Assembly: GCA_026129095.1 (NCBI GenBank)
Contig: JAHCIT010000009.1
Coordinates: forward strand, 1-64,000
From: Deltaproteobacteria bacterium
Lineage (GTDB): Bacteria > JAGRBM01 > JAHCIT01
Length of the DNA stretch: 64,000 bases
Reading direction: 5' to 3'
The position numbers and the translations under genes are program-made. The notes under the pieces are model-generated. The model had not been told where the DNA came from and made no database searches. It saw nothing but the letters and a program-made list of their open reading frames with translations. Below are positions 77 to 56,320 of the stretch, one piece after another. Within the stretch, counting starts at the first letter, position 1. Every line of letters begins with the position of its first letter.

Positions 77-166
77 TGGCGGAGGGTGTGAGATTCGAAC
101 TCACGAGGGCCTTGCGACCCTGGCGGTTTTCAAGACCGCTGCCTTAAACCACTCGGCCAACCCTCC
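77..166 (-). tRNA. tRNA-Ser (anticodon TGA), CCA encoded
   Basis: Reverse complement reads GGAGGGTTGGCCGAGTGGTTTAAGGCAGCGGTCTTGAAAACCGCC-long variable arm-GTGAGTTCGAATCTCACACCCTCCGCCA. It has an acceptor stem, D-loop GG, a CT-TGA-AA anticodon loop, GTTCGAAT T-loop and 3' CCA. Confidence 0.96.
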
Positions 167-42494: not shown

Positions 42495-43604
42495 CTACGC
42501 CCCACTGAGCTCCGGATCGAGGCGGGAGAGCACTTCCCAGGCCGGCGCATAGTCGGAATGCGAGACAAGATTTCGCTTCAAAAATCCCTGCAGCCTCGGA
42601 ATGAACGGCAGGTAAGCGGGGTTTTTCTTCACCCGATCAATATAAACGAACCGTCCCAGGGCCTTCATGTTTCGCTGAATCGCCTGGTCAACGAAAAGGC
42701 GGGAAAATTTCCGGTGATCCAACCTGTAGTGCCTGTCTGCTGTCGCCCGGGCTTCCGCATAAACGTCCACGAGCCGTGCCACCACATTCTCCGGCACTGT
42801 AACGTAGGCATCCCGAAGCAGTGAGGCGAGATCGTAGACGTCAGGCCCCATCAGCGAATCCTGAAAATCGATCACACCGATCCCACCTCCCTCCAAAACC
42901 ATCAGGTTCTTCGAATGATAGTCACGGTGGGTTAGGACCTGGGGTTCGGCAAAAAGCCGTGTCACGATTGGTTCAAATACATCCGCCAGAGCTTTCCGGT
43001 CAGCAGCGGACAGCTTTATCCCGAGACGGACCTCGATACCGTATTCGAGATAGTGGTCGAACTCCCACAAAAAAAGTTTTGGCGAAAACTGCTGATGGAA
43101 GCCGGTGCAATCTCCTATGGACCGGTCCGATCCCTTCGTGTGGTACCGGGCCATTTCGCGCACAGCTGTTTCATACGCCGCCAGCACATCAGGTGTAAAC
43201 CCCTTTGCTGTGGCTGCATAAAGACTGGTATCACCAAAATCCTCAATCAGCAGGTAACCCACTTCATCTGCCCGGAAATAGATAACCGGCACACGTACCC
43301 CGGCCACGAGAAGATGGCGGTCCATGGAACAGAATGGGTCTTCTCCAGGGCCATTGCCCTCGGTTGCCTCCTCTGACCCAAGGGGCCTGCCAACATTGTT
43401 CATCTGCATCAGAACGACTGTGCGAGGCACGTCGTCGTGCGGTTCCAGATGGATCCGGTAATACTTCCTGACGCTTGCATCCCCTTCGATGGGTGAAATC
43501 GCCCAAACACGCCAGCCGGGTGCAACATTTCCGGCCAGAAGATTCGCCACATCAGCAATGGGGGTTTCGGGCGTTATTCTTGCGACGGGATCCGGGAGTG
43601 GCAT
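42495..43604 (-). CDS. APH-family phosphotransferase, AmgK-like anomeric amino-sugar kinase
   Basis: GDASVRKYYR, EDFGD, HRDYHSKNLM, IDFQD, YDLASLLRD and QRNMKALGRF. Confidence 0.85.
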   Translation of the reverse strand: MPLPDPVARITPETPIADVANLLAGNVAPGWRVWAISPIEGDASVRKYYRIHLEPHDDVPRTVVLMQMNNVGRPLGSEEATEGNGPGEDPFCSMDRHLLVAGVRVPVIYFRADEVGYLLIEDFGDTSLYAATAKGFTPDVLAAYETAVREMARYHTKGSDRSIGDCTGFHQQFSPKLFLWEFDHYLEYGIEVRLGIKLSAADRKALADVFEPIVTRLFAEPQVLTHRDYHSKNLMVLEGGGIGVIDFQDSLMGPDVYDLASLLRDAYVTVPENVVARLVDVYAEARATADRHYRLDHRKFSRLFVDQAIQRNMKALGRFVYIDRVKKNPAYLPFIPRLQGFLKRNLVSHSDYAPAWEVLSRLDPELSGA

Positions 43605-43648: not shown

Positions 43649-45466
43649 TCAGGCCACCCGGCTCGTTCTAGCCGATTTTTCAACCTGCCAGTTGTCGAGG
43701 GTTCCCATGATCGGATCGCTGGCAGAGGCGAGATGCGGCGCAGCCCAGTAGGCAGATGAATAGTCCGTATTTCCCACTGGATCGGTGCGAAGTTCGATCC
43801 GGACTGTTTTCCCGCCAAAAGCTGAAAGATCCAGGTCGAAATGGTGCCAGGCACGATGCGACGGGTCGGTCTTCGGCGCCAGCGACCGGTCGAACAGGAG
43901 TGTTCGTAAAAACCGGCCACCCGCGTATACACGGAACCGGACACCATCAGTTCGGCTCCAGACTTCAGGGACAATACCGATACCAAACCTCAGGCGCGAG
44001 TCCGGTTTTACCCCCACCCGATAGATCAGCCGCGTCGGTGGATGGGCGCACAGGGCACTGCGTTCCTCATAGTTGAGCTTTGGCGCAGCGATATAGACGT
44101 AGCTGGGGTCTGGTGTCACCACCGTGGCCGTATCACGATGCTGGAGCAGGTCGTAATAGCCGCGACGGGCCTTTTCCTCGGCGATCTCGATACCCGAACG
44201 AGCAAACTCCCGGTAAAGCTCCAGCAGCCTTTCACGGCTGATAGTAGGGAGGTCCAGAAAGCTGTTCTCGTCGAAATAGCTCGGGTCTGTATCCTGCCGG
44301 AGGATCCCCTGTTCTTTCGCCTCGCGGTACAACGACGTACCAGGAAACGGCGTGAATATTGTTACTATGGTCCGGTTGGGGCGTATTTCCCGGTTGAGGT
44401 CGATAGAATCCCGGACCGTCTGTTCGGTTTCGCCCGGTATCCCGATGATGTTGTAGGTGGCCGTCTCGATCCCAAGCCTGTCGGCCTCACGGAAACACTT
44501 GCGGATATCGTCATTTGATATCCTTTTGATGAGCACTTTCCTTCGTAACTCCTCGTTACCGGTTTCTACCCCTGCCACGACCGAATACAGTCCCACATCG
44601 CGCAGGAGTTCCAGGCGTTCGGCATCAATTGTTTTTACCTGTAGCTGGATACGGAAAGGCATCCGCACACGGTCTCCGTAGATACGGGCAAATGCTTTCG
44701 TCCACTCCCGGTTCAAGGTAAAAATGTCGTCAATGAAATAGAACGTCCGGTTTCCATAGGTATCGCGGACATATTCACATTCGCGAACGACATCTTCAGG
44801 TGTCCGCCAGCGCAAGTTCGAGCCCAGCTCCCGGTTCTGGTCTATCTTCACTTCATTCGAACAATATGAGCACCGGTATGGACATCCCCGGCCCGCCATG
44901 ACGTTCGCCTCGCCATTCATCATCTCAATGACGCGGCTGAAGTCGAACAGTTCGTGATCCGGCCATCCGAGGCGGTCCAGATCCTCTACCAGCGGCCCCA
45001 TTGGATTCTGTTCCCATGCGCCAGCAGCAGTTTTCAGCCAGAAGTTGGCCAGGCCTGTTGGCCGACGGTTCCCAGCGCCCAGTTCCTGAACGTACTGGAC
45101 GAACTGGTCTTCACCTTCCCCGATGCAGATGGCGTCCAGTTCCGGCGCCTGTATGAGCGTCTCGTGGGGAGCCAGCGTCGGGTGGATACCCCCTGCAATT
45201 ACCTGCAAGCCAAAATGGGCTTTTGCCCAGCGAATCATGGGCACAACGAACCGCCACTGCCCGGAGGTTGTCGAGATGGCGAGAAGGTCCGGTTTCTCTT
45301 GCTGAATACGCTGGCAGAACTTTTCTTCAGAAGGCATCTCGGCCAGATGATACAGTGAACGGTCCGCTCCAGCCCGCTTCAATGCACCCGATAGCATCCC
45401 GATCCCCATCTGGTAATAGTGGGGCGTCCTGGACGCGATATCAGGATAGAGGAACAGCACTTTCAT
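43649..45466 (-). CDS. B12-binding radical SAM protein (copy 4) with C-terminal beta-rich domain
   Basis: GIGML, GGIHPT, GEGE; RGCPYRCSYC; DDIF, GVETG, GIPGET, TPFPGT. Confidence 0.93.
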   Translation of the reverse strand: MKVLFLYPDIASRTPHYYQMGIGMLSGALKRAGADRSLYHLAEMPSEEKFCQRIQQEKPDLLAISTTSGQWRFVVPMIRWAKAHFGLQVIAGGIHPTLAPHETLIQAPELDAICIGEGEDQFVQYVQELGAGNRRPTGLANFWLKTAAGAWEQNPMGPLVEDLDRLGWPDHELFDFSRVIEMMNGEANVMAGRGCPYRCSYCSNEVKIDQNRELGSNLRWRTPEDVVRECEYVRDTYGNRTFYFIDDIFTLNREWTKAFARIYGDRVRMPFRIQLQVKTIDAERLELLRDVGLYSVVAGVETGNEELRRKVLIKRISNDDIRKCFREADRLGIETATYNIIGIPGETEQTVRDSIDLNREIRPNRTIVTIFTPFPGTSLYREAKEQGILRQDTDPSYFDENSFLDLPTISRERLLELYREFARSGIEIAEEKARRGYYDLLQHRDTATVVTPDPSYVYIAAPKLNYEERSALCAHPPTRLIYRVGVKPDSRLRFGIGIVPEVWSRTDGVRFRVYAGGRFLRTLLFDRSLAPKTDPSHRAWHHFDLDLSAFGGKTVRIELRTDPVGNTDYSSAYWAAPHLASASDPIMGTLDNWQVEKSARTSRVA

Positions 45467-47364
45467 GCGGCCGCGCTCCTGCTGGATGACTCGGCCCGGC
45501 TGGCATCAAGCTCCGGTCCCGCCGCAAATGTGACATGTGGACGGGTTTCAGCCGCATTCCTGTATTCGATCCACGGGTGCCCCCACCCCGCCCATGCCCA
45601 GGTGCCATGCCCCTCGGCAGCGGTTGTCTGGAAGATGAATTCGACCTCGCCGGGGGTCTCTCCGGAAAGGTCAATCTCCACGGGAAGCCAGCTACGGTCG
45701 GCGGGATTCCGGCGCGGGAAAACAGTCTGGTCCAGCAGTTTCTTTTTCATCCGCCACGGGCGCTTCAGGTACAACCGGAACCGGATTCCGTCTGCATCTG
45801 GCTTGTCCCAGACCATCGGATTGACCGCAAGCGCGCACTTGAATACCGATGCGGAATTAAGCCTGACGCGGAATGCCGCTTCTGCCGGGGGATGCTCGAA
45901 CAGCACGAAACGGCGGTCATTGTTCACGTCAAATGACTGGATGGAGATGTGCTTCTGTTCGGTTTCGGCAATTCGCGCCTCGATGATTTCTGCAAGAAAA
46001 TCAAAATAACCCCGCCGCTGCTTGCGGAAGAAACTCGTCGTGATGGTTTTTTCAAACTTCTGCCCCAGTTCCATCAGCTTTTCAGGCGGCATGCCGGGCA
46101 GATCAAGCACCGACCTGAACCGGTGCAGTTCTGCCTCAAAAAAGTTCGAGAACGTCCGCTCGGAAAGACGCTCGCCCACGACTTCGGGATTTTTCAGATA
46201 CCCTTCGGCGACAGACCGGCGGTAAAGTTCCGTACCCGGATAGGGATAGAACACGCAGACATTGGAAAAATCCGGCGCCAGCTTCCGGTGGAAACCGATG
46301 GTCGCCTCGATATCCTCCGGCTTCTCTCCGGGAAACCCGATCTGGTAGAAGGCCCACGTCTTTATCCCGGCATCACGGCAAACGCGAAATGCCTCCCACA
46401 TCCGCTCATCCGACATACGGCGATTGAGAATCTCCTGCCGCACCCGCTGGGAACCTGACTCGATGCCTGCGTGAATCAGCGTGCAACCGGCATCAGCAAG
46501 CAGCCCGATAAGATCTGGCTTGGCCTGCTCGACCCGCATCAGGAACGAAAATTCCATGCCGACTTCCCGTTTCCATGTGTCGGCGAACTCTTCCATCCAG
46601 CCCCGCTTCGAGATGAATACCTCATCAAAAAACTGGATATGCTTCACGTTCCAGCGGCTGATCAGGTACTTGGCTTCCTCGATCACACTTCGGACGCTGC
46701 GCTTGCGATAGATTTCATTCCCCTGCCCGTAGTTCTCCAGGTAGAACTTGTTGCAGCAGTAATGGCAATCGTACGGACACCCGCGGCCCGACAGCATGAG
46801 AGCCGCAGACTGCCCGTGCCCGTAAGCCAGATGGTAAAAATCGAAAATGTCCCGGTCCGGATAAGGCAAGTCGTCGAGCTGCCGGTTGAGTTCCTGCTTG
46901 GCGTTCCGGACAAATCCGCCATCTGCCGTGCGGGCCCACAGGTTCGGTATATCCGTCGCGGACACGCCCCGGGCATGCCGGTCAACCAGCTCCAGCAGGG
47001 CTTCCTCGCCTTCGCCCACGCAAACGTAATCAATATGCGGAGTCTCGATGAAGCAGCTTTCGGGGGCCATCATCGCATGGAAACCGCCAACAACAACCGG
47101 AAGGCCCGTATCCTCCTTGACCCACTTCACATAACGCTTGGCCTCGCTCCACATGTTTGTAACAAGCGAGAAGCCCACCATATCGGCTCCGAAATCGGAG
47201 ATCCGGCGGGCCAGGTCCTCCCGGCTGATTTCACGAACCAGGTGTATCAGCGCCGTTTCGTGTCCGGCGGCCTTCAGCGTCGCTGAGAGGTATCCGACCC
47301 CGAAATTGTAAGTCGGATTATCATAATTGCCCGGATAGTCCGGATAGATGAACATGAATTTCAT
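45463..47364 (-). CDS. B12-binding radical SAM protein (copy 3) with C-terminal beta-rich domain
   Basis: GVGYL, GGFHA, GEGE; RGCPYDCHYC; DEVF, GIESG, GFPGE, YPYPGT. Confidence 0.93.
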   Translation of the reverse strand: MKFMFIYPDYPGNYDNPTYNFGVGYLSATLKAAGHETALIHLVREISREDLARRISDFGADMVGFSLVTNMWSEAKRYVKWVKEDTGLPVVVGGFHAMMAPESCFIETPHIDYVCVGEGEEALLELVDRHARGVSATDIPNLWARTADGGFVRNAKQELNRQLDDLPYPDRDIFDFYHLAYGHGQSAALMLSGRGCPYDCHYCCNKFYLENYGQGNEIYRKRSVRSVIEEAKYLISRWNVKHIQFFDEVFISKRGWMEEFADTWKREVGMEFSFLMRVEQAKPDLIGLLADAGCTLIHAGIESGSQRVRQEILNRRMSDERMWEAFRVCRDAGIKTWAFYQIGFPGEKPEDIEATIGFHRKLAPDFSNVCVFYPYPGTELYRRSVAEGYLKNPEVVGERLSERTFSNFFEAELHRFRSVLDLPGMPPEKLMELGQKFEKTITTSFFRKQRRGYFDFLAEIIEARIAETEQKHISIQSFDVNNDRRFVLFEHPPAEAAFRVRLNSASVFKCALAVNPMVWDKPDADGIRFRLYLKRPWRMKKKLLDQTVFPRRNPADRSWLPVEIDLSGETPGEVEFIFQTTAAEGHGTWAWAGWGHPWIEYRNAAETRPHVTFAAGPELDASRAESSSRSAAA

Positions 47365-47375
47365 GCGTCCGGCCC

Positions 47376-49250
47376 CTACCTCTGGGCAGCTCCCGCAAAG
47401 TCCACCCGTGGCCGCATGTTGATCGGCTCCGTGGTAAGCGAGACCGCGTTAAAAACCCGCCACTGGCGCGTCTTGAGATCGACATGCGGACGGCCCCAGT
47501 AGACCGTCGCATATTCAGCAGATGGAGCATCGACACTGGTCTTGAACACCAGTGTCACACGCTTCCCCGCCCACGGCGAAAGATCCACCTCGAAAGGCAC
47601 CCACGTACGGTGGCTTTCGATCCTGCGTGGCGACAACGTCCCCTTCCACAGGGATTTCTGCCAGAACGTCCTCTGGATGCCGATTTCAAACCGGATCTCA
47701 TCCGGCACATGACGCTCCCAGCAGTTCGCATCCATGCCAATTTCAAACCGGAGGGCAGAACCCGCCGGAACGTCTATCGTCCAGCGATAAATGGCAGGAG
47801 GGTGTGCCTGCAGGCACACCCTCGCACCGGCCGCCAGCGTCACGATACCGAGCCCCGTATGGCCATCAGGAGCCTGGACCCGGACGCTTCCATTACGGCT
47901 GGGGCCGCCAAACTCGTCTGTCATGTCCCGCAGGCTGCCTTCACGGGCGGCAGCAACGGCCGAATTGAGTAGCACTTCGTAAAACTCAAGCTGTTTGGCT
48001 GCAATCCGCTCCGGGGCGATCGTAACCCCGTTGTAGGAACCGATACGCTTGATATCGATCCAGTGAAGCGGCTTGGCGAAGTTGCTCTCTTCGTATTTCT
48101 GGAACAGCGCCGTCCCCGGCATCGGGTTGTAGATCGTCGCCTGAAGGACGTCCGGCATCGCTTCGCGAAGGAAGTCCAGCGTCTTGTCAATACTGGCCTC
48201 GGTTTCGCCAGGTACGGCGTACATGTTGTTCAGCTTGACCCGGATACCCCGGCGCTTGCACCCGCGAATAACTTCAAGTGCCTCCTCGTTGGTAAAATAT
48301 TTCCGGAGAACCTCTTTCCGGAACTGCGGATCCCCACTCTCCATGCCGAATTCGATGCCGACGCACCCGGCCTTCTGGAGCAGATCCAGTATCTCCTCAT
48401 TGATGCCCTTGAAATGGGCGCTGATCATGAACGGGATGCCACATTCCCTGGCCCAGGTATTACAGAATGCAGCTGTCCACGGCTTGAACATCGTGAACAT
48501 CTCGTCATCGAACAGTATGGACCGGATATCGTGCTGCTGGCGCATCGCGTTCACTTCAAGGCATATCGATTCCGGAGAACGCACCCGAAGCAGCTTCTTG
48601 CCGCCATACATGTCGAGCAATGCTGCGTTCGAGCAATAAGTGCAGTGGTACGGACAGCCGCGTTGCACTTTCATCTGGAACATCCCGCCGTTGCGGCGCA
48701 GGATGTCCTTCATGTCAAAAATGCTCCGGTCTGCCCACGGAAGATCATCGAGTTTTTCGACCGCCTGACCATGGCCGCCGTCAATTGCCACTCCCGTGTG
48801 CTCGTCAGGAAGCCATACGCCTGGGATTTCGGGCCGTTGGTCGCCTGAAGCGAGCGCCGTCAGATACTGTGGAAATGAGACATCCGCCTCGCCCACGAAC
48901 ACCGCGCCCCAGAGGGGGTCGGCCGCCTCGCCCTCGGCAAAGCCTTGCTGCGGCAGAAAAGTTGTATGGATACCGCCCACGATCCGGGGGCCAAGTCCGG
49001 CCTCACGTGCCCAGCAGGCCATTTGCCGGATCAACGGCCACTGAATCGAAGTGGAACTGAAGGCGAACAGGTCAGCACCGGATGCGGCCAGGGACTGGAT
49101 AAACTCGTCCCTGGCCGGCATCAAATGATAGTTCGAGAGGCCGGTTTCCCATCCCAGTCGCCTGGCAAGTGCCGAGAGCTGCCCGACCCCGTTGTGATAA
49201 TGCGGGTCGTTGCAGGTCCCAACGTTTGTGTAGATAAAATGGACCCGCAC
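47376..49250 (-). CDS. B12-binding radical SAM protein (copy 2) with C-terminal beta-rich domain
   Basis: GVGQL, GGIHTT, GEAD; RGCPYHCTYC; DEMF, GMESG, VPGET, PMPGT. Confidence 0.92.
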   Translation of the reverse strand: MRVHFIYTNVGTCNDPHYHNGVGQLSALARRLGWETGLSNYHLMPARDEFIQSLAASGADLFAFSSTSIQWPLIRQMACWAREAGLGPRIVGGIHTTFLPQQGFAEGEAADPLWGAVFVGEADVSFPQYLTALASGDQRPEIPGVWLPDEHTGVAIDGGHGQAVEKLDDLPWADRSIFDMKDILRRNGGMFQMKVQRGCPYHCTYCSNAALLDMYGGKKLLRVRSPESICLEVNAMRQQHDIRSILFDDEMFTMFKPWTAAFCNTWARECGIPFMISAHFKGINEEILDLLQKAGCVGIEFGMESGDPQFRKEVLRKYFTNEEALEVIRGCKRRGIRVKLNNMYAVPGETEASIDKTLDFLREAMPDVLQATIYNPMPGTALFQKYEESNFAKPLHWIDIKRIGSYNGVTIAPERIAAKQLEFYEVLLNSAVAAAREGSLRDMTDEFGGPSRNGSVRVQAPDGHTGLGIVTLAAGARVCLQAHPPAIYRWTIDVPAGSALRFEIGMDANCWERHVPDEIRFEIGIQRTFWQKSLWKGTLSPRRIESHRTWVPFEVDLSPWAGKRVTLVFKTSVDAPSAEYATVYWGRPHVDLKTRQWRVFNAVSLTTEPINMRPRVDFAGAAQR

Positions 49251-49265
49251 GAAGCCTCTCCGGCG

Positions 49266-51035
49266 TCAGTTTGCCGCACGTGACACGATAATCGGTTCGC
49301 CCCAATACGACGAGCAATACTCAGGCGATCCGGGGGCCTTCGTGATGAAGGCCAGATCGACTGTTTTCCCGGCCAGGGACGAAAGATCTATTTCAGCATC
49401 ATGCCAGCATCGGTCGTCCTTGTTGTTCTTGGGATCAATCTGCTTTTCGAACAGGGTCCGCTTGCGGAACATCGACCGGGCCTCCACCCGAAACTTCACC
49501 GGGCCGCCCTTGTCAGGTGACCAGACGGTCGGCGCCATCGTCACCCCGAATCGCAGTACCGAATTGGGCTTCAGTGTGACCCGGTAGCGAATCTCGCTGT
49601 CCGGATGGCAAAGGAGCGATGGCCGTTCGTCGGTATCCACGCGGACCAGTTCAACGTTGATATAACGCGGATCTGAGGTACGCAGCTGGGCACGGGGGAG
49701 TTCCTCAAAGAAGTCGTAATACGAACCCATTTTCTGCCTGCGTTTCATCGCGCTGAGCTGGTTTCCCAGCCGGTAAAATTCGTAATAGAGCTCTGTGAGC
49801 TTCTGCTTGGAAATTGTCGGCAGGTCCATGAACCCGACATGGGAGAAATAATTGTCGTGTTCGTATTCCTTGAGGTAGCCCTCCGACACACACACTTCAT
49901 GAAGCTTGGTCCCGGGGAACGGGGTGAATTTGAAAACCAGCGTGTGATCGGGGTTAGCCTGCCGAAGGATATCCATGGACTTCTGAATTGACTGTTCGGT
50001 TTCCCCGGGCACACCGACAATGTTGTAACTGCAGGTTTCGATTCCGACTTCGTCGCAGAACCGGAACGTATTGATGATCTGCTCATCGGTCAGGTTCCGG
50101 TTCATGACCTCGCGCCGGATGTAGTCATCGCCCGATTCGATGGCGATAATTGCCTGGTAACAACCTGCCTCTGCCAGCCGTCGGGCTGTTTCGCGGCCGA
50201 AGGTCTGCATCTGCACCTGCATGTTGAATGGCAGGTCAAATCTCTTTTTGTACTCGTCGAGAAACGCATACAGCCACTTCTTGTTCTCGGTGATGATATC
50301 GTCCGAGAACGTTATGTAACGGGCCTCTTCCGGATAGCGGTCAACAATACCCTGTATCTCGTCAATGACGCTTTCCACCGACCTCTGGCGAATGAAACGG
50401 CCATTACCGGAATAAAGCCGCATCTGGGCTTCGTTTGAACAGTAGGTGCAGCGGTACGGGCAGCCACGGGAAGTCATGATCTGCACGTTTCCATACTGAA
50501 GCCGGAGCGCCTTCGCATAATCGAGGCACTCGCGGTACGGCGGCGGCAGGCTGTCGAGGGGGTCCACCAGCTCGCGCATCTCGTTGACAATCACACGGCC
50601 ATCGGAAGCACGGGTCCAGATATTGGGTATGCGGTCAGTCGGCTTGCCCTGGGAAACAGCCTCCACAAGATCGAGCAACGCATGCTCGCCCTCGCCACGA
50701 CAAATGAAATCCATGTTGGGTTCGGCAATGCATTCATCCGGTGACAGTGTCGGGTGAACTCCACCGGCCACCGTAGGCACCGGATGCTCTTCCTTGATCC
50801 AGGCAGCCATCTGCCGGACGTATCGCCACTGGACGTACACCGACGAGAAACCGATCAGTTGAGGATCAAACTCCTTGATTGCCGCCATGAGCTTCTGGCG
50901 GTTTAGCTGAGGTACCCGCTCGAAACGGGGCTCATGACCGGCAGCCTTCAGCGTGGCAGCCAGGGAGCCCACACCAAGCTGATAGTATATTGGCGTAAGG
51001 GTATCGATATCCGGGTACAACAGCATTACGCGCAT
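49266..51035 (-). CDS. B12-binding radical SAM protein (copy 1) with C-terminal beta-rich domain
   Basis: LGVGSL, GGVHPT, GEGE; SRGCPYRCTYC; DDII, IESG, GVPGET, TPFPGT. GAGGA RBS upstream. Confidence 0.93.
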   Translation of the reverse strand: MRVMLLYPDIDTLTPIYYQLGVGSLAATLKAAGHEPRFERVPQLNRQKLMAAIKEFDPQLIGFSSVYVQWRYVRQMAAWIKEEHPVPTVAGGVHPTLSPDECIAEPNMDFICRGEGEHALLDLVEAVSQGKPTDRIPNIWTRASDGRVIVNEMRELVDPLDSLPPPYRECLDYAKALRLQYGNVQIMTSRGCPYRCTYCSNEAQMRLYSGNGRFIRQRSVESVIDEIQGIVDRYPEEARYITFSDDIITENKKWLYAFLDEYKKRFDLPFNMQVQMQTFGRETARRLAEAGCYQAIIAIESGDDYIRREVMNRNLTDEQIINTFRFCDEVGIETCSYNIVGVPGETEQSIQKSMDILRQANPDHTLVFKFTPFPGTKLHEVCVSEGYLKEYEHDNYFSHVGFMDLPTISKQKLTELYYEFYRLGNQLSAMKRRQKMGSYYDFFEELPRAQLRTSDPRYINVELVRVDTDERPSLLCHPDSEIRYRVTLKPNSVLRFGVTMAPTVWSPDKGGPVKFRVEARSMFRKRTLFEKQIDPKNNKDDRCWHDAEIDLSSLAGKTVDLAFITKAPGSPEYCSSYWGEPIIVSRAAN

Positions 51036-51055
51036 GGTTTTACCGTCCTCAATTC

Positions 51056-51149
51056 ACGCCGCATCGGCGGTCTTTCTTCAGTTGCCGGGTCCAGCCCTGC
51101 GGGAGCTGGGTGCCCTCGCCTCCGCATCCCCTAAAAAGACCGGCGGCGT
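51056..51149 (-). promoter_or_regulatory. Base-paired 5' leader of the radical SAM operon (candidate cis-regulatory RNA)
   Basis: Nested inverted repeats ACGCCGC/GCGGCGT and CGGTCTTT/AAAGACCG enclose a CCAGC/GCTGG hairpin. The structure ends about 5 nt before the RBS. Confidence 0.4.
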
Positions 51150-51170
51150 CCTGAACTGGCTATATTCCCC

Positions 51171-51200
51171 AAGTTAAGCATGTGCCGGGCCCTCCATCAA
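51171..51200 (-). promoter_or_regulatory. Possible sigma70 promoter for radical SAM operon
   Basis: Minus strand TTGATG-18 bp-TAACTT just upstream of the structured leader. Confidence 0.3.
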
Positions 51201-51453
51201 CCGGAAAACCTGAAAACCCCAGTGATCCGAACCACTTGAAATATTCTCTAAGGGGCAACCGGGCCAATCCATATCACTTTGCCAGATCCGGAAGACCCGT
51301 ATTTGACATTCCATGCAAAAACCGGTCTTTATGCGGCTCCGGTGGACCGGAGTACGCTTCAACAGGCGGTGACTTCAGGCCTTACGGCTCCCCCCACTGG
51401 AACTGAAAAACAACTCCCGTCTGGAAGACGGGGAGAGGCAGCCACAAACAGTC

Positions 51454-51603
51454 ATGAAACGTACGTATCAGCCTCATAATCGCCGTCGTGCCCGCAACCA
51501 CGGTTACCGGGCCCGTGCAGCGACAGCTAGCGGCCGCAAGATCCTGAAAAATCGCCGGACCAAGGGCCGCAAGCGGCTCGCCGTGCGTATTGCCAGCAAA
51601 TAG
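51454..51603 (+). CDS. rpmH: 50S ribosomal protein L34 (not in ORF track, 49 aa)
   Basis: Manual translation: [49 protein letters not shown]. Confidence 0.97.
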
Positions 51604-51755
51604 GTGGAAGCCCCTTCCCTGACGGGGAACCCACATCTGGCCTCAATCAAATCCTGCCATCTGAAATAGTGCCGGCAGGTATAAAAGCGGGAAGCAAGGG
51701 GTTCAGGGATACACAGTTCCGGTGAAGTCCCGGTTTTCGTGATCGCCCATCCGCC

Positions 51756-52082
51756 ATGATTTCGCACCGGTTTCCCAAAGCGGCCCGGATATCACGCTCA
51801 GGCGAGTTCGAGGCCATCTGGAAAGCAGGCAAACGGCAGCGGATAGGTTCACTGGAAGCCCGTTACGAACCAGGCCAGCGGCCACAACTGGGAATCGCCG
51901 TTGACCGCCGGACCGGTAACGCGGCAGTCAGAAACCGCCTCAAACGATGGATACGAGAGCACTTCAGAACACATCCCGACCTGTTCAGCCAGCCCTGGCG
52001 GCTGGTTCTGGTAGTCCGCAGGGACATGCCGAGGGCATCGCTCACAAGAGATTTCGACCGGTTATGGGCGCGGTGCAAATAG
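51756..52082 (+). CDS. rnpA: Ribonuclease P protein component
   Basis: RFPKAARI and LGIAV...GNAAVRNRLKRWIRE (RNR motif); follows rpmH. Confidence 0.93.
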   Translation: MISHRFPKAARISRSGEFEAIWKAGKRQRIGSLEARYEPGQRPQLGIAVDRRTGNAAVRNRLKRWIREHFRTHPDLFSQPWRLVLVVRRDMPRASLTRDFDRLWARCK

Positions 52083-52333
52083 CCGGAAAGCTGCTGGCGC
52101 TACCGCTCATCCTGATCGTCCAGGCTTACCAATGGACGATCAGGCCGCTGCTGGGAAACCGCTGCCGCTTCTATCCGTCATGCTCTGACTATTCACTTGG
52201 AGCGTTCAAACGCCACGGAGCAGTATTCGGAACGGTCCTGACGGTCCGGCGGCTGGCCTGCTGCCATCCGTTTCATCCGGGCGGTGTCGATCCCGTTCCC
52301 GACCGGCTCACGCTCTTCACAAGGAACTCATAA
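52064..52333 (+). CDS. yidD: Membrane protein insertion efficiency factor YidD
   Basis: YQWTIRP...CRFYPSCSDY...CHPFHPGGVDPVP. Start ATG 52064. Confidence 0.93.
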   Translation: MGAVQIAGKLLALPLILIVQAYQWTIRPLLGNRCRFYPSCSDYSLGAFKRHGAVFGTVLTVRRLACCHPFHPGGVDPVPDRLTLFTRNS

Positions 52334-54091
52334 GTGAAAGACGAAACCCGCCACCGCCTGTTCATCATCCTGTCGATGGCTGTTATTATTGGCTGGTATG
52401 CCTTGGTGGTACCACCGAGAAAGCCGGCACAGAGTCCCGTCAAGGACGACAAGACTGCCCCGACCACCCAAATTACCGATGCTCAACCGGTGCCTGCTGC
52501 CGGGGCACCCGATGATAGTTCAAGTTCCCCGGAGTCGCTTCAGCCGGTCACAGCTCTGGAGCGCGAAATACTTGTTGATACACAACTCTATACGGCCGTT
52601 GTTACCACCCAAGGCGGGATTCTCCGGCGGTTTGAACTCAAGTCGTATCAGTCGAATGACCGCTCAGGACTCAAGGATATTATCGACCAGTCGGTTGTTC
52701 ACCCTCCCCTGTTTGCCCGCATCCGAGGGCTCAAGGCGGCTGAACAGGGTGACCATTTACCTTACGTGTACGATGGCCCTTCCGAAATCATGCTGGCCGG
52801 AAAGACCGAAGAAGTCCGCCTGCCACTTCGTTACCGGGATTCAGCTGGCGTAGAAGTCCATAAGGATATCTTTTTCAGCCCGACGACTTACAGCGTCAGA
52901 GCAGAGTACCGGGTTATTGCACCTGCCGTCACTACCGCCAGAAAGTTCCAGCCCGTTTACGTCCTCGCACTCGATCATTCCAAGGCACCCAAAACATCGA
53001 CGGCACGCATGGGAACCCATGCAATCGTCGGTGCATCCGGCACTGATCGCCATGAGTTTGGCGCCCTCGCCGACAAGAGCATAAAAATCACCGATGATCC
53101 CCGCTTCGCCGGTTTCGAGGATCACTACTTCCTGACGGCAATTCTGCCGGAAAATCCCAAGCATTCGGCGCTGATCGCATCACGCACATCCCCTAGCCAG
53201 TGGGAGACCGCTGTGGAAGGTCCGGAATTGCTGGCTGGAACCGATGCCGCTACGGCCGAGGTCTCGGCGGTCCGGTACTATCTCGGACCTAAAACCGACG
53301 CGGCCCTGCTTGCTGTAGATCAAAAGCTGGAAGCAGCCATCAACTACGGATTTGGCCAGACTCTGATCAAGCCCATAGCGAAATTCCTGCTTCTGCTTCT
53401 CCGGATATTTCATGGCGTCGCAGGTGACTGGGGACTGGCCATCCTGATGCTCACAGTCATCGTCCGCGTTGCATTGTTCCCGCTCGCCATCAAGCAGTTT
53501 CACTCGATGCAGGCAATGGCGACACTCAAGCCGAAAATGGATGCACTCAAGGAGAAGTACAAAGACGACAAGGTGGCATTGAACCAGGCCACCATGGACC
53601 TGTTCCGGGAGCATAAGGTCAATCCGCTATCCGGCTGTCTTCCGATTCTTCCGCAGATACCGATATTCCTGGGGTTGTATGTCAGTCTGGATACCTCACT
53701 GGAACTCCGGCACGCCGCATTCCTGGGCACCTGGATCCAGGATCTGGCGATTCACGACCCATACTATGTTCTGCCGCTGATTACCTGCGCGACCATGGCG
53801 ATCTCCATGAAACTGACGCCTTCTCAAATGGACCCAATCCAGCAGAAAGTCATGATGATCATGCCCATCGTGATGTTTTTCCTGTTTATGAATATTGCTG
53901 CCGGACTGGTGCTCTACTGGAGCGCATCCAACGTGTTCTCGATTGGTCAGCAGCTTTATTTTAACGCCAGGAACAAGCGGCTCTCTGCCGCACGGGAGCA
54001 GGATCCATCAGCCCAGGTGGTGCCGACGACAGCCAAAGAGGTCTCCGGAGAACCGGCAGGCCCACGAAACCGCAAGAAACCGCGCCGCTGA
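52334..54091 (+). CDS. yidC: Membrane protein insertase YidC
   Basis: WGLAILMLT, NPLSGCLP, ELRHAAF, DPYYVLP and GLVLYW. Confidence 0.97.
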   Translation: MKDETRHRLFIILSMAVIIGWYALVVPPRKPAQSPVKDDKTAPTTQITDAQPVPAAGAPDDSSSSPESLQPVTALEREILVDTQLYTAVVTTQGGILRRFELKSYQSNDRSGLKDIIDQSVVHPPLFARIRGLKAAEQGDHLPYVYDGPSEIMLAGKTEEVRLPLRYRDSAGVEVHKDIFFSPTTYSVRAEYRVIAPAVTTARKFQPVYVLALDHSKAPKTSTARMGTHAIVGASGTDRHEFGALADKSIKITDDPRFAGFEDHYFLTAILPENPKHSALIASRTSPSQWETAVEGPELLAGTDAATAEVSAVRYYLGPKTDAALLAVDQKLEAAINYGFGQTLIKPIAKFLLLLLRIFHGVAGDWGLAILMLTVIVRVALFPLAIKQFHSMQAMATLKPKMDALKEKYKDDKVALNQATMDLFREHKVNPLSGCLPILPQIPIFLGLYVSLDTSLELRHAAFLGTWIQDLAIHDPYYVLPLITCATMAISMKLTPSQMDPIQQKVMMIMPIVMFFLFMNIAAGLVLYWSASNVFSIGQQLYFNARNKRLSAAREQDPSAQVVPTTAKEVSGEPAGPRNRKKPRR

Positions 54092-55278: not shown

Positions 55279-55384
55279 TACAGATATATTACCGGCCGGT
55301 TTTACACCGGCATTCGGATGCGTGTAATATTTCACAATGCTGGCATGCGCAGGGTGAGTACCATTGGCTCTGGCGCACTCTGGA

Positions 55385-56320
55385 ATGATTGCTCCGGAAA
55401 CCGGAGCAGATTCCATTGTCAGCGGCCGGGGGCGGTCCTGGATAGTGCCGACAGTAATTTCCAGTAAGCAGACCTACATCACGCGGAGTCCGGATGGTCT
55501 CATGATCGGTCCGGTCAGCCGCCGGGTGGTGGTCGAGCTGATTCGCGATCGCAAGGTCTCCGTAGGGCATACGTTTTCTGTCGACGGAGGGCCACAGGTT
55601 CCCATTTACGAAGACGACGAATTCCGGCAATACCTCTCCAAGTTCGGTCCCGTTCCCGCAAAAGGCGGTGCCGCGGCTGCCGATAAGCCGGTGGCTCCGG
55701 CCGGACCCCGTCCTTCGGCAGCTGCTGCACCCGCGGTTTCGGTCCCACCCGTTGTCTCTGAGCAAACCCAGCATGATCTGGAAATGCTTGACGACGAGGA
55801 TGATGACGATGACGACAGCGATTTCACCCTGAGTTTTCACGAAGTAAAGGACGTCGTACTCAGCCTGAGCCGGCAGCGCCAGAAGCTGGAAGACGACGAA
55901 GGAGTGCTCGAAACCCTTGATGACGTGCCCCTGGCCGAGATCGTCTCCGCAGATGACGAGGATGTCGTCGCCATAGGTGACGAGATGGAGCTCCCGCCTG
56001 ACGAAGTGTTTGAGGAAGTCGAAGTGCTGGAACTGGAAGCCGCTGAGACTGGACCGGTCCGGCAGGCCGCCAAAGTACCGACCTCGGGCCGCGCCCGGCT
56101 CAAGGCGGAGCTGACCAACCCCAGTAATCGCTACAAGATCCAGAACCCCGATGGCCTGATGCTGGGACCGGTCCGGATCCCTACAGTCCGGGATCTTGTG
56201 GAAGCCGGTGCCATTGATCGCCGGGCAAAAATCTCAAAAAACGACGGGCCCTATGTGGATGCCTGGAGCCTGCCAGAGGTACGCTTCCTGATCGTCCGGC
56301 TCAGCCAGAAAAAAGGCTAG
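55385..56320 (+). CDS. Hypothetical protein: two GYF_2-like domains joined by an acidic linker
   Basis: Repeated Y...PDGLM.GPV motif at both ends, with a D/E-rich middle. Start uncertain. Confidence 0.6.
   Translation: MIAPETGADSIVSGRGRSWIVPTVISSKQTYITRSPDGLMIGPVSRRVVVELIRDRKVSVGHTFSVDGGPQVPIYEDDEFRQYLSKFGPVPAKGGAAAADKPVAPAGPRPSAAAAPAVSVPPVVSEQTQHDLEMLDDEDDDDDDSDFTLSFHEVKDVVLSLSRQRQKLEDDEGVLETLDDVPLAEIVSADDEDVVAIGDEMELPPDEVFEEVEVLELEAAETGPVRQAAKVPTSGRARLKAELTNPSNRYKIQNPDGLMLGPVRIPTVRDLVEAGAIDRRAKISKNDGPYVDAWSLPEVRFLIVRLSQKKG

Follow-up and report, generated by a model that had tools for sequence, protein, structure and literature searches.

In a 64,000-nucleotide stretch of DNA from a Deltaproteobacteria bacterium (contig JAHCIT010000009.1 of assembly GCA_026129095.1, positions 1 to 64,000 of the forward strand; hereafter the window), four adjacent minus-strand genes (43649..51035) encode radical S-adenosylmethionine (SAM) enzymes of the B12-dependent type. 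Judged by sequence comparison and predicted fold, this cassette is a real, conserved and non-redundant set of an undescribed B12-radical SAM subfamily whose members carry a carbohydrate-binding-type domain. We propose that it probably serves as a detached radical-tailoring module for a lipid-linked surface glycan exported by an ATP-binding cassette (ABC) transporter. The sequence-only reading of the window had left open whether a lipid, a glycan or a protein is modified; the fold of the C-terminal domain, which resembles carbohydrate-binding module (CBM) family 51, and the operon context of relatives in other phyla narrow this choice and point to a surface glycan.

Four intact and diverged enzymes

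Gene 1 (49266..51035; 589 amino acids, P0001), the first in the cassette, combines a B12-binding and a radical SAM domain with a C-terminal CBM51/NPCBM-like beta-sandwich, as assigned by Pfam and fold comparison. The same architecture is found in gene 2 (47376..49250; 624 amino acids, GTG start, P0002), which is the most divergent copy, in gene 3 (45463..47364; 633 amino acids, P0003), the most conserved one, and in gene 4 (43649..45466; 605 amino acids, P0004). With gaps of 15, 11 and -4 bp from gene 1 to gene 4, the genes look like one operon. Their pairwise protein identity is only 28-38%, which excludes an assembly duplicate. These coordinates and this divergence agree with the sequence-only reading, which had described four intact genes of this size and spacing, each with a cobalamin-binding domain and the motif RGCPYxCxYC, diverged from one another (GEAD versus GEGE) and ending in the same extra domain.

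Pfam Radical_SAM was above cut-off in all four proteins and the B12-binding family PF02310 in genes 1, 3 and 4, with gene 2 falling below it (26.4 vs 32.1 bits, E 7e-6). All four have the N-terminal Rossmann B12-binding domain and the radical SAM domain that define the class B superfamily architecture, and all contain RGCPYxCxYC, GG[VIF]H and GE[GA][ED]. By the motif definitions in the available part of PMC9204698, the GG and GE cobalamin motifs, CxxxCxxC and the SAM-binding motifs are intact in each, and there is no His ligand motif. The best fold matches of the enzymes are TsrM, MgmA, AprD4, OxsB, CysS and TokK. No membrane segment (maximum hydropathy 0.8-1.3) or signal segment was predicted in any of the four.

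By architecture, the cassette thus belongs to the B12-radical SAM superfamily, and its sequences place it in no curated subfamily: no NCBIfam model reached its curated cut-off with any cassette protein. HpnJ (TIGR03471; cut-off 577.6 bits) scored 151, 106, 120 and 128 bits for genes 1 to 4, and the other best scores were 132 for BchE (cut-off 481), 123 for ApyD (750), 121 for TIGR04072 (360), 109 for the oligosaccharide radical SAM family TIGR04295 (400) and 64-80 for NF033070, AprD4 (500); the cut-offs of HpnR, PhpK, BzaD and MgmA were likewise not reached. As a positive control, the same library named the genome's own HpnR (871 bits, cut-off 650), MiaB and DnaA above cut-off.

In four RNA libraries, contigs span stretches of the cassette; the uncovered parts are uninformative. 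The junction of genes 1 and 2 is bridged by contigs of libraries X3 and X2, and those of genes 2 and 3 and of gene 4 and the downstream amgK-like gene by contigs of X2, whose coverage is flat and possibly reflects DNA. These contigs, which carry neither strand nor expression level, give a weak hint of a single transcript. A promoter and terminator scan was uninformative (2 promoter-like sites vs 4.4 expected; 13 terminator-like sites vs 8.6 expected).

A CBM51/NPCBM-like domain on each enzyme

The last ~150 residues of the cassette proteins have no Pfam match, and the Pfam family NPCBM (PF08305) found no sequence match in them at E 0.01. A model of the gene 1 domain (49278..49727), built from 21 sequences, reached a predicted local distance difference test score (pLDDT) of 95. 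In an alignment of this model to 48,161 solved chains, the top six rows were all CBM51 or CBM51-like modules (Z 14.1-15.2, root-mean-square deviation (rmsd) 2.2-2.6), followed by a non-CBM51 row at Z 11.6. Foldseek rows for the domain were mostly CBMs. In the Atlas, the same fold occurs on YfhO, sulfatase, glycosyltransferase family 2 (GT2) and PMT proteins, and a feature-level lead ran to a cluster with 22% NPCBM members. The equivalent domains of genes 2, 3 and 4 lie at 47475-47939, 45553-46014 and 43721-44164 on the same strand.

A profile of the domain matched exactly the four cassette genes among 27,782 open reading frames of the genome, and 4,748 sequences among 1.84 billion representatives. 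Pfam domains of 62 carriers from the best 150 matches comprised 6 of GT-C type, 9 sulfatases or phosphodiesterases (one also glycosyltransferase family 4, GT4), 1 GT2, 8 radical SAM, 7 with TPR only and 1 Ig-like, with 30 lacking a Pfam match. Further fusions were seen, namely a B12-radical SAM enzyme joined to the domain and a class I methyltransferase (P0260, P0273) and a 1504-residue radical SAM protein with a FliW domain (P0247). The domain is present in 28 of 401 sampled genomes. A metagenome scan, which was saturated with generic members of the B12-radical SAM family, held it in 1 of 80 loci; it was not found in loci L036-L113, Omnitrophota-labelled loci included.

Relatives in a second phylum lie mostly in glycan-export operons

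A survey of genome neighbourhoods, which the sequence-only reading had called for, placed relatives in a second phylum mostly in a glycan-export operon. There, all 13 genomes carry the domain, and the operon begins with an ABC2 permease, an ATPase with a Wzt_C domain, a SPASM radical SAM gene, a GT2 with the same C-terminal domain and a domain-bearing B12-radical SAM gene, and continues with three SPASM-type radical SAM genes, one or two further domain-bearing B12-radical SAM genes, a hexapeptide acetyltransferase, a methyltransferase and a GT4 (Pfam was checked for G043 and G023, the others being assigned via BLAST families or profiles). Altogether, 22 of the 24 domain-bearing B12-radical SAM genes of this phylum (in 11 of 13 genomes) share a gene run with the domain-bearing GT2 or with a GT4, and in 8 of 13 genomes the GT2 run starts with a Wzt-type ATPase. 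In G043, G051 and G049 the operon is unbroken; contig ends interrupt it in G048 and G050, and elsewhere in the phylum it is split or reduced. The version in G043 gathers wzm, wzt, four SPASM-type genes, three B12-radical SAM genes, the domain-bearing GT2, the acetyltransferase, the methyltransferase and the GT4 in a single locus (L223:1888-18202). The phylum also has a second conserved run of a methyltransferase, a GT2, a GT4 and a B12-radical SAM gene without the domain (L287:4650-9239 in G023; L288:6913-11405 in G047), the GT2-GT4 pair of which recurs in G041 (L289).

Independent glycan loci show similar company. Locus L117 holds Wzt_C, methyltransferases, two GT4 and an epimerase, and in G253 a GT2 adjoins, with WbsX-GT4, MBOAT and AlgX nearby. 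In G333 (L325:8476-14287) and G181 (L326:5031-10760), the domain is inserted between the halves of a related GT4, which adjoins a 900-residue methyltransferase protein and a Wzt-type ATPase; each of these two genomes has a second GT4 with an inserted CBM51-like domain (L327, L328). Core relatives that lack the domain also have glycan genes nearby: GT2 or GT4 make up 13 of 104 same-strand neighbours, and a glycan-assembly gene occurs in 16 of 37 loci, compared with 15 GT2 and 16 GT4 matches in the whole 3.67 Mb genome, an estimated ~1% of genes. In a third phylum, the domain occurs in 8 of 17 genomes as tandem B12-radical SAM pairs, with a SPASM enzyme and an epimerase in G413 and a SPASM enzyme and a methyltransferase in G121.

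Conservation and origin of the four genes

Within the order to which the window's genome belongs, the domain is found in 6 of 6 genomes, with four copies in the window's family (4/4 genomes) and three in the other family (2/2); a named record with a three-gene cassette (L034) was labelled Bdellovibrionota by its depositor. Gene 2 is seen only in the window's family; neither genome of the other has it. In G001, G002, G004 and G005, the four relatives whose flank was read, the cassette is located at yidC or close to it; G003 is fragmented. Overall, orthologs share 69-86% identity within the family and 49-63% across families: 78-81% and 58-60% for gene 1, 83-86% and 61-63% for gene 3, 79-80% and 49-50% for gene 4, and 69-73% for gene 2, which also has the longest branch in the trees. 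The ratio of nonsynonymous to synonymous substitution rates (dN/dS) against two relatives was 0.06-0.14 for the four genes (0.07-0.08 for gene 3), indicating purifying selection, next to 0.17-0.18 for yidC and 0.08-0.16 for amgK, der and mnmA, all of these values being rough because dS is near saturation.

The ortholog groups have 100/100 support in a 66-row tree, and at the His-loop, GGE, beta-3, beta-5 and beta-6 positions around the cofactor sites the conserved residues differ from paralog to paralog, which argues for four specificities. Because the groups are fully supported, their cofactor-site residues are group-specific and dN/dS is low in all four, the genes do not appear redundant, in keeping with the earlier view of them as distinct enzymes. 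That view had also taken them for four tandem paralogs. They are indeed homologous neighbours, but probably not the product of one simple expansion. A tree of full-length sequences from 42 proteins unites genes 1, 2 and 4 in a clade (97/94) and places gene 3 apart from them, in a weak group (89/97) with a protein of the glycan locus L117. An approximately unbiased (AU) test weakly rejected a single four-gene clade at p 0.03 with full-length sequences under one model (LG+G4), with no rejection for the core alone (p 0.19). These trees omit two loci that duplicated ones already in the set. Gene 3 is thus probably of separate origin from the other three.

Candidate partners in this genome and the supply of B12

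The four genes probably make up only part of a system, with likely partners at other places in the genome. Profiles built from the operon genes of the second phylum match a GT4 (C1:162556, 291 bits) that adjoins a GT2, as well as two wzm/wzt-like pairs (C2, C8) and two SPASM-type enzymes (C12:503525, C21:67172). In 4 of 5 genomes tested, the best match of this GT4 is the operon GT4; in the remaining one it is a GT4 lying two genes away from the F4-family SPASM gene. For the SPASM enzyme at C12:503525, the best match is the F4 family in 5 of 5. Reverse profiles return the same GT4 and SPASM genes, making them reciprocal best matches, and all five relatives of the order have matches to the GT4, the SPASM enzyme and Wzt_C.

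By sequence, the order is a user of B12. A cobalamin riboswitch was found in 6 of 6 genomes, lying here upstream of a gene that resembles a TonB receptor by eye, and each genome has 14-17 B12-binding matches. Since CobS was not found in any of the 6 genomes searched, the cofactor is probably imported.

Other loci of the genome also drew attention. A second tandem B12-radical SAM pair, without the C-terminal domain and below curated cut-offs (L243:7487-15290; C8:19486-27289), is convergent with a wzm/wzt (Wzt_C) pair and an unnamed 624-residue gene, a layout that recurs in G003 and apparently in G001. On C12 (L246:3860-12559), two MsbA-like ABC transporters, an F4-type SPASM enzyme and an EamA gene are convergent with a short-chain dehydrogenase and a squalene-hopene cyclase. 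Two very long open frames of ~9,950 and ~6,000 codons (C20:41686-71547, C12:43194-61253) were seen as BLAST subjects.

Proposed function

We propose that cytoplasmic GT2 and GT4 enzymes would build the glycan on a lipid carrier and that each radical enzyme would dock, via its CBM51-like domain, on the glycan, a nucleotide-sugar or a repeat-unit precursor. The [4Fe-4S] cluster would cleave SAM to give a 5'-deoxyadenosyl radical, which would take hydrogen from one sugar carbon, at a different position or residue for each paralog. The substrate radical might then be methylated by methylcobalamin, as by GenK, GenD1 and MoeK5, or rearranged or deoxygenated without methyl transfer, as by HpnJ, the calditol synthase Cds and AprD4. 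SPASM enzymes and O-methyl- and acetyltransferases may add further changes before Wzm/Wzt export the product. Counting in favour of this reading are the CBM51-like fold and the proteins that carry it, the glycan loci of relatives, the partner genes matched in this genome, the glycosyltransferases near core relatives, the sugar-acting AprD4 as best solved relative by sequence, and the use of B12 by the order. Sugar binding, substrate, reaction and the order of steps are what we infer from fold, motifs and gene company.

In class B, the most frequent outcome is the transfer of a methyl group from methylcobalamin (PMC9204698, in its available part), and the prediction of the reaction from the lower ligand is listed among the open questions in the portion of PMC13331322 at hand. 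We give C-methylation only a slight edge, with rearrangement or deoxygenation almost as probable, because the TokK-type Trp is missing and neither the closest profiles nor the closest structure (HpnJ, BchE, AprD4) belong to a methylating enzyme. By the criterion used, a Trp six residues past the start of the downstream cobalamin motif plus a Trp in CxxxCxxC-x-W, the TokK/ThnK/CysS-type signatures are lacking; the cassette has G-x-S-x-x-x-x-[QM]-W, with the aromatic residue at +8, and CxxxCxxC-[SC]-N.

Several observations weigh against a glycan-tailoring role. The domain is 6-14% identical to CBM51 modules, and likeness of fold alone is no proof of sugar binding, which is suggested by the fold together with the company the domain keeps. 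No glycan gene was found beside the cassette in the five genomes of the order with a readable flank, so the glycan link in this order goes by homology, and none of the four genes is a clear ortholog of a second-phylum subfamily in the trees. In this genome, the GT2 partner is not a clean best match, and the SPASM families F3 and F7 and the methyltransferase F9 match only weakly; the pathway here would thus be related, not identical. The single copy in G041 and G042 adjoins a metallo-beta-lactamase-fold gene. No glycosyltransferase was seen in the eight third-phylum neighbourhoods read, from which we conclude that detached cassettes recur, and in one third-phylum family the pairs follow a GH43-like gene and an M32 peptidase. 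Finally, the 104 neighbours counted for core relatives without the domain were picked by hand, in 37 of 78 loci.

Alternative explanations

The main alternative, itself unlikely, is that the cassette acts on a membrane lipid and alters its sugar or polyol head group, such as the side chain of a hopanoid or another glycolipid, in the manner of HpnJ and calditol synthase. Among NCBIfam models HpnJ scores best for genes 1 and 3, and a fold of the sugar-binding type would fit a glycolipid as well. In 3 of 6 genomes of the order, the F4-type SPASM gene is only a few genes away from squalene-hopene cyclase; all 6 encode a full-length cyclase, a finding that also counts against the surface-glycan reading. 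However, the HpnJ scores stay far short of the cut-off (578), the genome has its separate HpnR above cut-off, and the Wzt with its Wzt_C domain points to a polymer. Moreover, a full-length cyclase domain was found in none of the 13 second-phylum genomes (5 have partial matches of ~100 residues). A hopanoid substrate for the whole family is disfavoured, as the second phylum keeps the family without this enzyme. Independently of the cassette, the HpnR of this genome, a hopanoid C-3 methylase (L348:873-2378; C18), together with the squalene-hopene cyclase of 6 of 6 genomes, makes this uncultured order a candidate source of 3-methylhopanoids. It is very unlikely, in turn, that the enzymes act on lipid hydrocarbon chains, through ladderane-like rings or GDGT-like (glycerol dialkyl glycerol tetraether) cyclisation or methylation. 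Tandem B12-radical SAM paralogs are known in lipid pathways (PMC13459092, in its available part), and the ladderane-cluster family TIGR04072 matches at 76-121 bits, but its cut-off is 360. No gene for an acyl carrier protein, FabF, FabZ or a desaturase could be recognised next to the cassette or within the operon of the second phylum, and a CBM-like domain common to GT2 and GT4 has no evident acyl-chain role.

We consider it improbable that the enzymes modify a protein or peptide, a small metabolite or a natural product, with the C-terminal domain just a scaffold or lid. Most characterised B12-radical SAM enzymes belong to natural-product pathways (PMC9204698, in the part available), the M32 peptidase mentioned above is a carboxypeptidase, and ApyD, an enzyme of peptides that are ribosomally synthesized and then post-translationally modified (RiPPs), is the top match of gene 2 at 113 bits, a score to be set against its cut-off of 750. 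The gap upstream of the cassette contains just five short frames, and no RiPP precursor peptide, RiPP recognition element (RRE), protease or exporter was found near the cassette by a scan that misses precursors shorter than 16 residues or encoded in trans. The RRE fold differs from a jelly roll, which is what the domain forms. The genes are also retained like core genes and are, by dN/dS, more conserved than yidC. The absence of gene 2 from the other family, together with its having the weakest B12-domain score, could instead suggest redundant or decaying copies with one activity. This is extremely improbable, given that all four genes are under purifying selection with their own conserved active-site signatures and fall into ortholog groups fully supported across genera.

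A surface glycan remains the substrate that we favour. Beyond this, we tentatively entertain, with more doubt than confidence, the broader possibility that an undescribed B12-radical SAM family, targeted by a fused CBM51-like module also present on its partner glycosyltransferases, rewrites the carbon skeleton of an envelope polysaccharide, perhaps by methylating several carbons, contracting rings or joining sugars through C-C links. This would be a core trait in several uncultured phyla, and in this order the pathway would have become scattered over the chromosome with its four radical steps kept together.

Neighbouring genes and other features of the window

A Pfam scan of the 37 other window proteins found no sugar glycosyltransferase among them and no nonribosomal peptide synthetase, polyketide synthase or transporter gene adjoining the cassette, as the sequence-only reading had noted. 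Downstream on the same strand, at a distance of 44 bp, lies an AmgK-like anomeric sugar kinase gene (42495..43604; NCBIfam AmgK 115 bits, cut-off 550). This gene, which has no nucleotidyltransferase (murU) beside it and is convergent with der, is probably a mere neighbour; an intervening gene separates it from the cassette in G002, and it lies away from the cassette in G004 and G005.

Upstream is a divergent run, rpmH-rnpA-yidD-yidC-jag, in which jag was named by Pfam and the other four are what we take them to be from sequence and the familiar gene order. The gene dnaA is often located next to rpmH; here it is on a different contig (C12:525904, above cut-off) and not at the rpmH flank (51036-51453), and no DnaA box was found in positions 50000-53000. 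Rfam identified only a tRNA gene in the window (80-166, minus strand) and no riboswitch at the cassette. A 318-residue protein without a Pfam match (55364-56320), conserved in G001, has two similar short terminal segments and an acidic linker.

Significance and comparison with known systems

Reviews name B12-radical SAM enzymes that act on antibiotics, peptides, pigments and lipids (PMC12931638, PMC9204698, in part); the words 'glycan' and 'polysaccharide' are absent from the available text of the 2026 review PMC12931638, as is 'polysaccharide' from that of PMC9204698. If our proposal is right, B12-radical chemistry would reach as far as the cell envelope, through a conserved family directed at an exported surface glycan, and there would be a first functional handle on a very large unannotated B12-radical SAM group near glycosyltransferases. 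The more tentative skeleton-rewriting possibility, if true, would amount to a new class of chemistry in bacterial surface polymers and would supply a set of enzymes to functionalise C-H bonds of carbohydrates site-selectively. Concrete targets are at hand in the complete single-locus operon of G043 (L223) for expression and in the small, well-modelled domain for binding assays. A targeted literature search, which lay largely outside subscription papers, found no published description of such a CBM51-like B12-radical SAM system and no radical SAM tailoring of Wzm/Wzt glycans.

GenK, GenD1, Fms7 and MoeK5 methylate carbons on sugars. They are class B radical SAM C-methylases that act on gentamicin, fortimicin and moenomycin carbons and share the N-terminal B12-binding domain and radical SAM barrel with the cassette (PMC9204698); they differ in belonging to antibiotic clusters with small-molecule substrates, the available part of that review mentions no CBM51-like domain on them, and we liken them to the cassette by description, not sequence. 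AprD4 (PDB 6fd2) is the best solved relative by sequence (E 3e-33), over the radical SAM part only (profile positions 155-416), and is a radical SAM diol dehydratase that acts on paromamine, an amino sugar, although PMC12931638, in its available part, lists it as unrelated to B12-dependent enzymes. For HpnJ and Cds, both radical SAM enzymes, a sugar-ring contraction on a lipid has been proposed (PMC13459092, PMC9204698, in part), and HpnJ acts after a glycosyltransferase step (HpnI). The cassette differs from them in its scores far below cut-off, in its extra C-terminal domain and in the persistence of the family without full-length squalene-hopene cyclase.

The C-terminal domains share their fold with solved CBM51/NPCBM modules (PDB 2vmi, 7js4; Z 15.2, rmsd 2.2-2.3 over 131-132 residues), which sit on hydrolases or proteases, whereas those of the cassette sit on enzymes without a predicted membrane or signal segment. 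To our knowledge, known Wzm/Wzt pathways use no radical SAM tailoring. The operons of the relatives resemble the Wzm/Wzt pathways for O-antigen, capsule and S-layer glycans in their ABC2 permease, Wzt_C ATPase, GT2, GT4 and methyl- and acetyltransferases, while in the genome studied here the radical SAM genes stand detached from the export genes.

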